The notes below the pieces were generated by a model that saw nothing but the letters and a program-made list of their open reading frames with translations, did no database searches and had not been told where the DNA came from. This document shows positions 21,229 to 22,109 of a stretch of DNA of 62,539 nucleotides, piece by piece; the stretch's first letter is position 1; each line of letters starts with the position of its first letter. The DNA lies in IMG/VR virus record IMGVR_UViG_2634166512_000005. One strand, 5' to 3'. The stretch is from a virus (lineage: Duplodnaviria; Heunggongvirae; Uroviricota; Caudoviricetes). A program made the translations under genes and the position numbers.

Positions 21229-21262
21229 GCCCAAAAACAACAGGCACCCCGGAGGGTGCCTG
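21229..21262 (-). terminator. Rho-independent terminator upstream of J
   Basis: minus-strand hairpin CAGGCACCC-TCCGG-GGTGCCTG followed by a T-rich run. Confidence 0.45.
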
Positions 21263-21300
21263 TGTCATGACGGAATAAAATTTCTGAAATTCTTCACATT

Positions 21301-21328
21301 TTTGCAAAATCCTGGTGGCGCTTATAAT
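21301..21328 (+). promoter_or_regulatory. sigma70-like promoter in the I-J spacer, antisense to the tail operon
   Basis: TTGCAA, 15-16 nt spacer, TATAAT. Confidence 0.45.
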
Positions 21329-21334
21329 TTCTCT

Positions 21335-21429
21335 GCGTTACCATTTTTTTCCGTGACATAATAATTCCTTACAGTTAATCTTCGTATCTCTTCCCGCAGC
21401 TACAGAGCACTGCGGGATTTTTTTATTTT
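21335..21429 (+). ncRNA. candidate small RNA in the I-J spacer
   Basis: promoter at 21301-21328 and terminator CCCGCAG...CTGCGGG plus U-run at 21393-21429; no ORF with RBS. Confidence 0.4.
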
Positions 21430-22109
21430 CATCCCCGCCCGATAACCACCACTTTCCCGTCACCGCCCTCATCACGGGTGCTGATGTCCTGGGATATCCG
21501 TCGTGAACCAACCAGCATTTCACCGTAAGGCACCGGCATCGGATTCCCCTGGGCAATCATGTTGTCCAGTGACGAAAAATACGTGTTCTGTTTACCGTTA
21601 TCCGTGCTTTTGTACTCCGGCGTCTTTGCCTTCGGGGCCAGCATCTGGGCCACACCACCCAGTATCATGCTGGCACCCAGTGAGAACAGCATCGTGGTGG
21701 CAGTCAGCCCTCCGGCACTCAGGGCTGCGCCCCACAACGCCATCGTTGCACCGGCGGTGAAGAAAGAGCCCACGATGGCTGCAGCCCCCAGCACCACCTG
21801 AAAAACACCATTTCCCCCGGCCCCTGCCAGCCTCGGTACAATATGAATCACGGCCCTCCCGCTCAGCGGTTCATGAAGACGGGCATACACCGCCTCCGGC
21901 GCGGTATCCTCACCGGCAATACGTATCTGGTACCAGCCTTCGTTCATCTGACAGCGGAATCCCGGCACCTGCTGCGACAGGGCACGGATGGCCTCCGCTG
22001 CCGTGTTCACATACAGACTGATGCGGCGACCAAATCGTTGTAAATCCCCGTGAAGGCAGATGCGGACCAGTGGCGGTGACGCCAGACAGAATGCGTTCGT
22101 CGTTGCCAT
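21429..22109 (-). CDS. I: tail assembly protein I
   Basis: 226 aa, lambda gpI-like (ICLHGDLQRFGRR...GAAAIVGSFFTAGAT). Confidence 0.85.
   Translation of the reverse strand: MATTNAFCLASPPLVRICLHGDLQRFGRRISLYVNTAAEAIRALSQQVPGFRCQMNEGWYQIRIAGEDTAPEAVYARLHEPLSGRAVIHIVPRLAGAGGNGVFQVVLGAAAIVGSFFTAGATMALWGAALSAGGLTATTMLFSLGASMILGGVAQMLAPKAKTPEYKSTDNGKQNTYFSSLDNMIAQGNPMPVPYGEMLVGSRRISQDISTRDEGGDGKVVVIGRG

Follow-up and report, generated by a model that had tools for sequence, protein, structure and literature searches.

The closest described relatives of the element considered here are two sets of prophage-encoded, Hfq-bound small RNAs (sRNAs). PasB, from prophage PP6 of enteropathogenic Escherichia coli (EPEC) E2348/69, is an 83-nt RNA (NC_011601.1, 1466343..1466261, minus strand; probe AATCCCGCAGTGATCGCGGAGCT; Table S6) that ends in a U7 tract, was verified by northern blotting and is depleted in delta-hfq relative to wild type (log2 fold changes of -6.8 and -2.4); in RIL-seq (sequencing of interacting RNAs after their ligation) it was the second RNA in 99-100% of its chimeras, with 37 partners (Pearl Mizrahi et al., 2021, PMC8550237). 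EcOnc22, EcOnc23 and EcOnc24 come from prophages Sp15, Sp14 and Sp11 of enterohaemorrhagic E. coli (EHEC) O157:H7 Sakai, and EcOnc22 shows an Hfq peak in CRAC (cDNA analysis after cross-linking), gives a northern band of ~85 nt and is destabilised in delta-hfq (Tree et al., 2014, PMC4104026 Table S2). The target of EcOnc22 is listed as unknown in a review (PMC7873438), Table S6 of PMC8550237 gives no EHEC homologue for PasB, and a 2026 preprint that discusses PasB never mentions EcOnc (Zhu, Shabalina & Storz, 2026); in the searchable literature we found no link drawn between PasB and EcOnc22-24. We analysed a 62,539-nt stretch of DNA from a virus of the Caudoviricetes (IMG/VR record IMGVR_UViG_2634166512_000005; the whole stretch is called the window hereafter), in which tail genes I and J are separated by a 239-bp spacer (21190-21428). 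Very probably this spacer carries a self-contained, non-coding "moron" sRNA gene of the PasB/EcOnc22-24 family, whose product would act by Hfq-dependent base-pairing.

A homologue of PasB and EcOnc22-24 in the I-J spacer

A preliminary description of the sequence had noticed a promoter-terminator cassette in the spacer, and its features are indeed present, as judged from the sequence itself, a promoter and terminator scan and the predicted fold. The transcription unit proper consists of the following elements:

21301-21328, plus strand: sigma-70 promoter, with -35 TTTGCA (21301-21306), a 16-nt spacer and -10 TATAAT (21323-21328); 10/12 in the promoter scan
21335-21424, plus strand: predicted sRNA, allele D of the PasB/EcOnc22-24 locus, with a short 5' stem, a long single-stranded body and a terminator (nhmmer, fold, alignments)
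21366-21383, plus strand: conserved core, UCCUU (21366-21370) and GUUAAUCUUC (21374-21383), near-invariant columns in allele classes A-E
21393-21424, plus strand: Rho-independent terminator, CCCGCAG (21393-21399) and CTGCGGG (21410-21416) with a 10-nt loop, followed by U7 (21418-21424) (sequence, fold)

The family is essentially sequence-based, and we therefore used an nhmmer profile instead of a covariance model. Only sequences of alleles A (EcOnc22-type) and C (PasB-type), and none of the window type, went into the profile; its match (E = 4e-13) covers 21335-21426 and runs through model positions 1-94. This full-length match is the outcome of the comparison with known prophage sRNAs that the preliminary description had called for, and the prophage sRNA antisense to the tail operon that it had suspected turns out to be homologous to the known EHEC Hfq sRNAs EcOnc22-24 and to EPEC PasB. 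Over the transcribed part, identity to the window RNA is 69% for PasB, 72% for EcOnc22, 65-68% for a further allele class (B) and 92-95% for two other D alleles.

The genomic setting is the same in all cases. In E2348/69 both genes are on the plus strand, with the end of tail assembly gene I at 1466255 and the start of gpJ at 1466496. PasB therefore lies antisense to them within the I-J spacer, and its terminator adjoins the I stop codon, a geometry identical to that of the window. The two spacers align end to end and share the J-proximal hairpin, GTCATGACGGAATAAAATTTCTGAAnnTCTTCACATTT, the promoter-region sequence GTGGCGCTTATAAT, which is the same in both loci, and the terminator stem with U7. 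The longest exact run that they have in common is ~17 nt, and a BLAST search with 28-nt words, as was used to define "PasB variants", would presumably miss the window allele. EcOnc22/23/24 map to the I-J spacers of Sp15, Sp14 and Sp11, which are identical to one another, and their northern probe has a 23-nt exact match, GTTAATCTTCATCGTTCTCTCCC, directly 5' of the terminator; the published EcOnc peak coordinates would coincide with the RNA body provided that the 128 bp by which the two Sakai genome versions differ in length lie upstream of these loci. Judged by sequence and position, PasB of EPEC and EcOnc22/23/24 of EHEC are the same locus.

With Rfam 15, no family was found in the spacer at the gathering threshold, and at E <= 10 there were only chance hits (plastid and viral families among others); PasB and EcOnc22 themselves have no Rfam model. 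AgvB (RF02702), AsxR (RF02703), Esr41 (RF02676) and STnc100 (RF02076) were considered as candidate identities for the spacer and ruled out, having no Rfam match in it.

The predicted transcript and its conserved core

The 5' end at 21335 is a prediction, placed 7 nt past the -10 hexamer. An RNA running from there to 21422-21425 would measure ~88-91 nt, or ~75 nt if its 5' end lay as in PasB, so that a short plus-strand RNA, as expected earlier, is still predicted, while its proposed length of ~95 nt was slightly too long. The promoter itself had been described at 21301-21328, and the scan recovers it there as TTTGCA-16-TATAAT. Promoter-like sites occur at 2 per 1.3 kb scanned, compared with 0.5 expected from shuffles.

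Folding of 21335-21425 (91 nt) gives a minimum free energy (MFE) of -17 kcal/mol (z = -2.2); 34 nt of the body remain single-stranded, and the terminator hairpin has 10 pairs. Both UCCUU and GUUAAUCUUC are unpaired in the MFE and centroid structures, and the core at 21366-21383 is likely to be the seed. It is preceded by A-rich A-R-N repeats, AAU AAU here and AAC AAA AAC AAC in PasB, which are predicted to be single-stranded. The position of this conserved single-stranded core agrees with the proposal that PasB has its seed immediately upstream of its terminator (Zhu, Shabalina & Storz, 2026). A weak 5' stem of the window allele, GUUAC/GUGAC, was discarded, having no support across alleles.

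The plus-strand terminator, described beforehand as ending at the I stop codon, is evident in sequence and fold: 4 nt separate the end of its U-run from the complement of that codon (21429-21431, minus strand). It is absent from the output of the terminator scan, because its 10-nt loop exceeds the 8-nt loop limit of the scan. Among 19 alleles it is the sole helix in the consensus structure (RNAalifold).

A CRP-like site upstream of the promoter

Directly upstream of the promoter lies a further element, resembling a binding site of the cyclic AMP (cAMP) receptor protein (CRP):

21283-21298, plus strand: CRP-like element TCTGA-N6-TCACA with A/T-rich flanks, centred at 21290.5, ~-44.5 from the predicted start

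It agrees with the CRP core consensus TGTGA-N6-TCACA at 9/10 positions, one half being imperfect. It is the first conserved element of the cassette and persists in several IMG/VR loci with unrelated sequence further upstream; its right half, which lay outside the search pattern that retrieved the spacers, is kept in at least 98% over 60 distinct spacers, among the matches listed. We regard it as possible, with more doubt than confidence, that TCTGA-N6-TCACA makes the sRNA promoter responsive to cAMP-CRP. Spot 42 (Spf) is a CRP-repressed RNA. In the "non-activating" growth condition the level of PasB was raised and that of Spot 42 was ~5-fold lower (PMC8550237), and the CRP-like site would offer a testable explanation for the higher PasB level in that condition.

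Conservation, allele classes and spread

By megablast, the whole spacer is kept in 96 phage records, mostly of Shiga toxin (Stx)-converting phages. Of 5,426 complete E. coli genomes, 743 have it, at 2,704 places altogether (median, three copies per genome). Such conservation argues that the cassette is more than a chance constellation. A 20-mer from the conserved upstream block retrieved at least 120 IMG/VR stretches; together with the window and the loci found earlier, they amount to at least 61 distinct 300-mers. The transcribed region falls into at least five allele classes among the matches listed:

Class A: EcOnc22-like
Class B: 65-68% identical to the window RNA
Class C: PasB-like
Class D: window type
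Class E: with another, longer terminator stem

Promoter, core motifs and terminator are kept across all five of these diverged classes, and the RNA body is strongly multi-allelic between conserved flanks. Because the body varies in this way, counts of "PasB" defined by BLAST understate the spread of the locus. Allele D occurs at 95% identity or more in ~75 E. coli genomes, and at 100% in the bovine strain RM10466, in which NZ_CP028381.1 1152518-1152719 corresponds to 21229-21430. The spacers of RM10466, Sakai and E2348/69 carry no RefSeq annotation, and recognising an unannotated Hfq-type sRNA gene in the tail region of Stx-type prophages is a gain for their annotation.

A 20-mer scan of 185,579 species-representative genomes, a set with one genome per species in which the 20-mer itself was absent, gave no evidence of the element outside E. 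coli phages; its output consisted of three chance hits and one 460-bp contig. This contig (NZ_FWPT01000051.1, from a Parendozoicomonas haliclonae assembly) is a true lambdoid I-J spacer with an A-type allele (79% identical to the window over 177 nt), and most likely represents contamination of the assembly by E. coli or phage DNA. A fixed-gap pattern scan of IMG/VR returned mostly chance matches, together with several genuine loci with other upstream context. Overall, comparison of these sequences suggests that the cassette may move as a unit, with the CRP-like site as its left edge. At three of the IMG/VR loci (L144, L147 and L140) the cassette is intact from TCTGA-N6-TCACA to the terminator, and the stretch separating it from the downstream tail gene bears no relation to the window sequence and has no sense-strand terminator.

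Flanking tail genes and the sense-strand hairpin

The spacer is bounded on the minus strand by the following features:

17503-21189, minus strand: gene J, with a series of Pfam GpJ domains (FNIII-A_GpJ, Ig_J, Ig_GpJ_C and others)
21187-21205, minus strand: J start codon GTG (21189-21187) and ribosome-binding site (RBS) AGGAG (21205-21201), from the sequence
21230-21263, minus strand: terminator-like hairpin 21263-21240, followed by TGTTGTTTTTGG, upstream of the J RBS (scan: 10 pairs, 7 G-C, loop of 4)
21429-22109, minus strand: gene I (Pfam Lambda_tail_I)

The GTG at 21189 corresponds to the annotated J starts of Sakai, E2348/69 and RM10466, and the gene upstream of I has JAB and NlpC/P60 domains, as does K (Pfam). 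By its predicted gene content, the minus strand of the window is a lambda-like tail operon. The separation of I and J, given before as ~240 bp, was measured as 239 bp; the accompanying statement that I and J abut in lambda was incorrect, as they lie 60 bp apart there. The ~180 bp that the window has in excess of the lambda gap correspond to the upstream site, promoter, sRNA and terminator.

On the minus strand, the terminator proposed before the J RBS was recovered by the scan at 21263-21240, with the tail TGTTTTTGGG. This hairpin is kept in most alleles and missing from some related loci. In lambda, the 60-bp gap (15445-15504) carries on the sense strand a G+C hairpin, CCGCCTGCGGGCGG, followed by TTTTGTCATTT, before the J RBS. 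Since lambda has the same device, the sense-strand hairpin is ancestral and lies outside the inserted cassette. At 21263-21230, hairpin and T-run together would halt polymerase short of J unless it is Q-modified, in which case it would read through.

Proposed action and targets

In a lysogen, host RNA polymerase would start from the TATAAT promoter at about 21335, transcribe from J towards I, antisense to the silent late operon, and terminate at CCCGCAG...CTGCGGG-U7, shortly ahead of the I stop codon. This would yield an RNA of ~75-90 nt with a terminator hairpin and U-tail and an A/U-rich single-stranded body, stabilised by Hfq, that could base-pair through the exposed core UCCUU ... GUUAAUCUUC and allele-specific flanking bases. 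Expression, size, Hfq dependence and RNA partners are experimental for alleles A and C only, from the data of others; for allele D, expression, Hfq binding and trans-acting regulation are predicted by analogy with them. As promoter, terminator and exposed core are the same, the window allele would be expected to yield an Hfq-dependent base-pairing sRNA too, and as the bases flanking the core differ, its targets may differ as well.

The PasB partners given in the available part of the RIL-seq partner list include bfpB, bfpI, perB, ler, ftsZ, galE, glk, gshA, hflX and a PP9 gene (PMC8550237). The strongest partner in that part is a plus-strand RNA at 743482-743611, with 774 chimeras, and a second, similar one lies at 1290834-1290972 (PMC8550237). 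We located the former in the intergenic region between the esterase and class II holin genes of PP2 in E2348/69, that is, in a late-operon leader opposite pasA, and the second leader partner listed occupies the corresponding place upstream of the holin gene in PP5. These pairings are a hint that tail-region sRNAs and lysis-region transcripts of different prophages may be in cross-talk. In a loop-limited complementarity scan, UGUCUGUC of PasB can pair with GACAGACA in its top partner. In RNAduplex target scans of the window and of the E2348/69 PP2 region, the positive control, PasB against the partner at 743480-743560, ranked only 2nd of 446 scanned segments.

A far more speculative reading, to which we give only a small chance, would make the I-J spacer a multi-allelic sRNA "slot" that couples the carbon status of the host to cross-talk among co-resident lambdoid prophages, by pairing with late-operon RNAs at the holin leader or the I-J junction, with PasB and EcOnc22-24 as alleles of one system. 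If this were true, each allele would set leaky lysis, tail expression or the outcome of induction for different prophages.

Alternative explanations

Several observations weigh against the interpretation of the cassette as a base-pairing sRNA gene with its own regulated promoter. The 5' end of PasB, as given by RNA-seq coverage, lies 15 nt downstream of a prediction based on the -10 hexamer. The centre of the CRP-like site, at ~-44.5, fits neither class II (-41.5) nor class I spacing of CRP, and a lone match in 62 kb is within chance (one match to TNTGA-N6-TCACA in the window, 0.48 expected). In the first core motif, a C-to-U change gives the window UUCC where other alleles carry the anti-Shine-Dalgarno-like CUCC. 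Across 19 alleles, RNAalifold found no covariation for any helix besides the terminator. The transcribed part is only 69-72% identical to those of the studied RNAs, so that the target set may differ from theirs, and RNAduplex, motif and complementarity scans revealed no outstanding trans target in the window, including its esterase-holin region.

Other functions can be imagined for the same sequence. The RNA might act mainly in cis, which we think unlikely: it would pair with the I-J late mRNA of its own, a co-resident or a superinfecting phage of the same allele and lower the expression of J, the tail tip, through transcriptional interference or cleavage by RNase III or RNase E; on this view, the diversity of alleles would stem from phage-specific recognition. 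Such a role would suit a gene that is convergent with I and wholly inside the late transcription unit, with a strongly multi-allelic body between conserved flanks and a median of three copies per E. coli genome; in the duplex scan of the window, the best pairings are the trivial ones that the RNA makes with its own antisense strand, at the two copies of the cassette, and the top RIL-seq partners of PasB in the available part of the list are late-operon RNAs of other prophages. Yet those partners are trans (ler, bfp, ftsZ, hflX and holin-upstream leaders), with no I-J chimera among 14 entries of the list, over 130 nt separate the complementary stretch from the J RBS, and the sRNA is detected in the lysogen, which has no late mRNA. 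Action in cis and in trans are compatible and not mutually exclusive.

That the cassette is merely a transcriptional insulator or a relic, with opposed terminators blocking read-through and a fortuitous promoter or functionless RNA, seems very improbable to us. A sense-strand hairpin exists at this place even in lambda, each hairpin has a T-run on one strand only, and promoter-like hexamers arise by chance in AT-rich DNA; but neither the maintenance of promoter, core motifs and terminator across five diverged alleles, nor the retention of the upstream site beside unrelated flanking sequence, nor the existence of homologues that are abundant Hfq-bound RNAs with many specific partners would be expected of such a device. 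A small protein is scarcely credible. The candidates would be a 44-aa plus-strand open reading frame (ORF) at 21227-21361, or a sense-strand ORF behind AAGGA (21365-21369), where AAGGA-N6-ATG opens a 21-codon frame, and two phage records do annotate a "hypothetical protein" here, an annotation that we consider spurious. The 44-aa ORF has no RBS and crosses a hairpin and the promoter, it is frameshifted in allele B and has no ATG in allele C, the sense-strand frames vary in start, frame and length between alleles, and the RefSeq annotations of RM10466, Sakai and E2348/69 have no gene here. The earlier statement that the spacer holds no credible ORF is therefore borne out: the 44-aa (plus) and 41-aa (minus) ORFs exist, without an RBS, and the frames are broken in other alleles. 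An Hfq-dependent sRNA gene of the PasB/EcOnc22-24 family remains our preferred reading of the spacer.

A truncated second cassette and other RNA features of the window

The window contains the cassette a second time, in truncated form:

6766-7007, plus strand: truncated second cassette with upstream site, promoter and sRNA body, without terminator (nhmmer match 6949-7012, alignment)

Positions 1-7007 of the window equal 14403-21393 at 99.5%, and 7007-13568 equal 55983-62539 at 99.6%, so that the first 13.6 kb are a near-identical prophage copy minus the equivalent of 21394-55982 (~34.6 kb). The left breakpoint of this deletion coincides exactly with the base that opens the sRNA terminator stem. 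The junction at 7007 was found in 0 of 5,426 complete E. coli genomes, and in RM10466 its two halves lie 35 kb apart. The first 13.6 kb could be a tandem deletion derivative or an assembly artefact. Compared with the full copy, the second cassette has 1-nt indels: one, in the CRP-like site, is the loss of a T (N6 to N5), a second affects the -35 region, and further 1-nt indels disturb the J-proximal hairpin. The adjacent copy of J (3105-6800, minus strand) is frameshifted and split into five ORFs. The pattern of indels in the second copy points to decay or to homopolymer-type sequencing errors.

Another spacer of the window resembles the I-J spacer in layout. Between the esterase gene (ending at 42499) and the holin gene (starting at ~41998), both on the minus strand, a 500-bp spacer (41999-42498) has terminator-like hairpins on the plus strand, of which GCACCGCCAGCG...CGCTGGCGGC with T7 abuts the esterase stop codon, as in the I-J sRNA. 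It is the position of PasA/PasC/AgvB-type sRNAs in other prophages, and it contains an Esr41-like Rfam match (42425-42497, plus strand) that is sub-threshold, with 22 bits against a gathering score of 102; there was no BLAST similarity to the corresponding PP2 spacer of E2348/69. At the gathering threshold, Rfam matches at 44675-44890, 50789-50963 and 46299-46547, all on the minus strand, comprise STnc100 (193 bits), the sok antitoxin RNA (113 bits) and three tRNA genes. STnc100 is related to PasD (Zhu, Shabalina & Storz, 2026), and the sok match implies a putative hok/sok-type toxin-antitoxin locus in the prophage.

Comparison with known systems

The lambda I-J gap shares with the window the sense-strand G+C hairpin and T-run upstream of the J RBS, but is only 60 bp long and lacks the antisense promoter, sRNA and terminator. 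In being short, prophage-encoded, equipped with its own promoter and terminator and presumably Hfq-bound, the predicted sRNA resembles the anti-sRNAs AgvB and AsxR and other moron sRNAs such as PasA/PasC, PasD/STnc100 and Esr41. With these morons it also has in common a location inside the late operon and convergent with it, A-R-N-rich 5' parts, and a variable 5' region followed by a conserved 3' part. These morons differ from it in lying downstream of the PR' moron, near the lysis genes, whereas the window sRNA is in the tail region, and the two show no sequence or covariance-model similarity.

The resemblance is closest to the RNAs of the same locus. EcOnc22-24 share with the window sRNA their locus, strand, architecture, GUUAAUCUUC and terminator stem, and the EcOnc22-type allele A differs in a weaker promoter (AATAAT, with a poor -35), another 5' body and another terminator loop. 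PasB and the window sRNA have in common UCCUU, the core (G/A)UU(A/G)AUCUUC, the upstream TCTGA-N6-TCACA and the context of the -10 hexamer, and differ in terminator loop and RNA body, that of the window being 8 nt shorter; where PasB has UGUCUGUC, able to pair with its top RIL-seq partner, the window has AUCUCUUC instead. The Hfq-bound prophage moron sRNA is a known kind of element, to which the link between PasB and EcOnc22-24 and the recognition of a single locus with five alleles are small additions.

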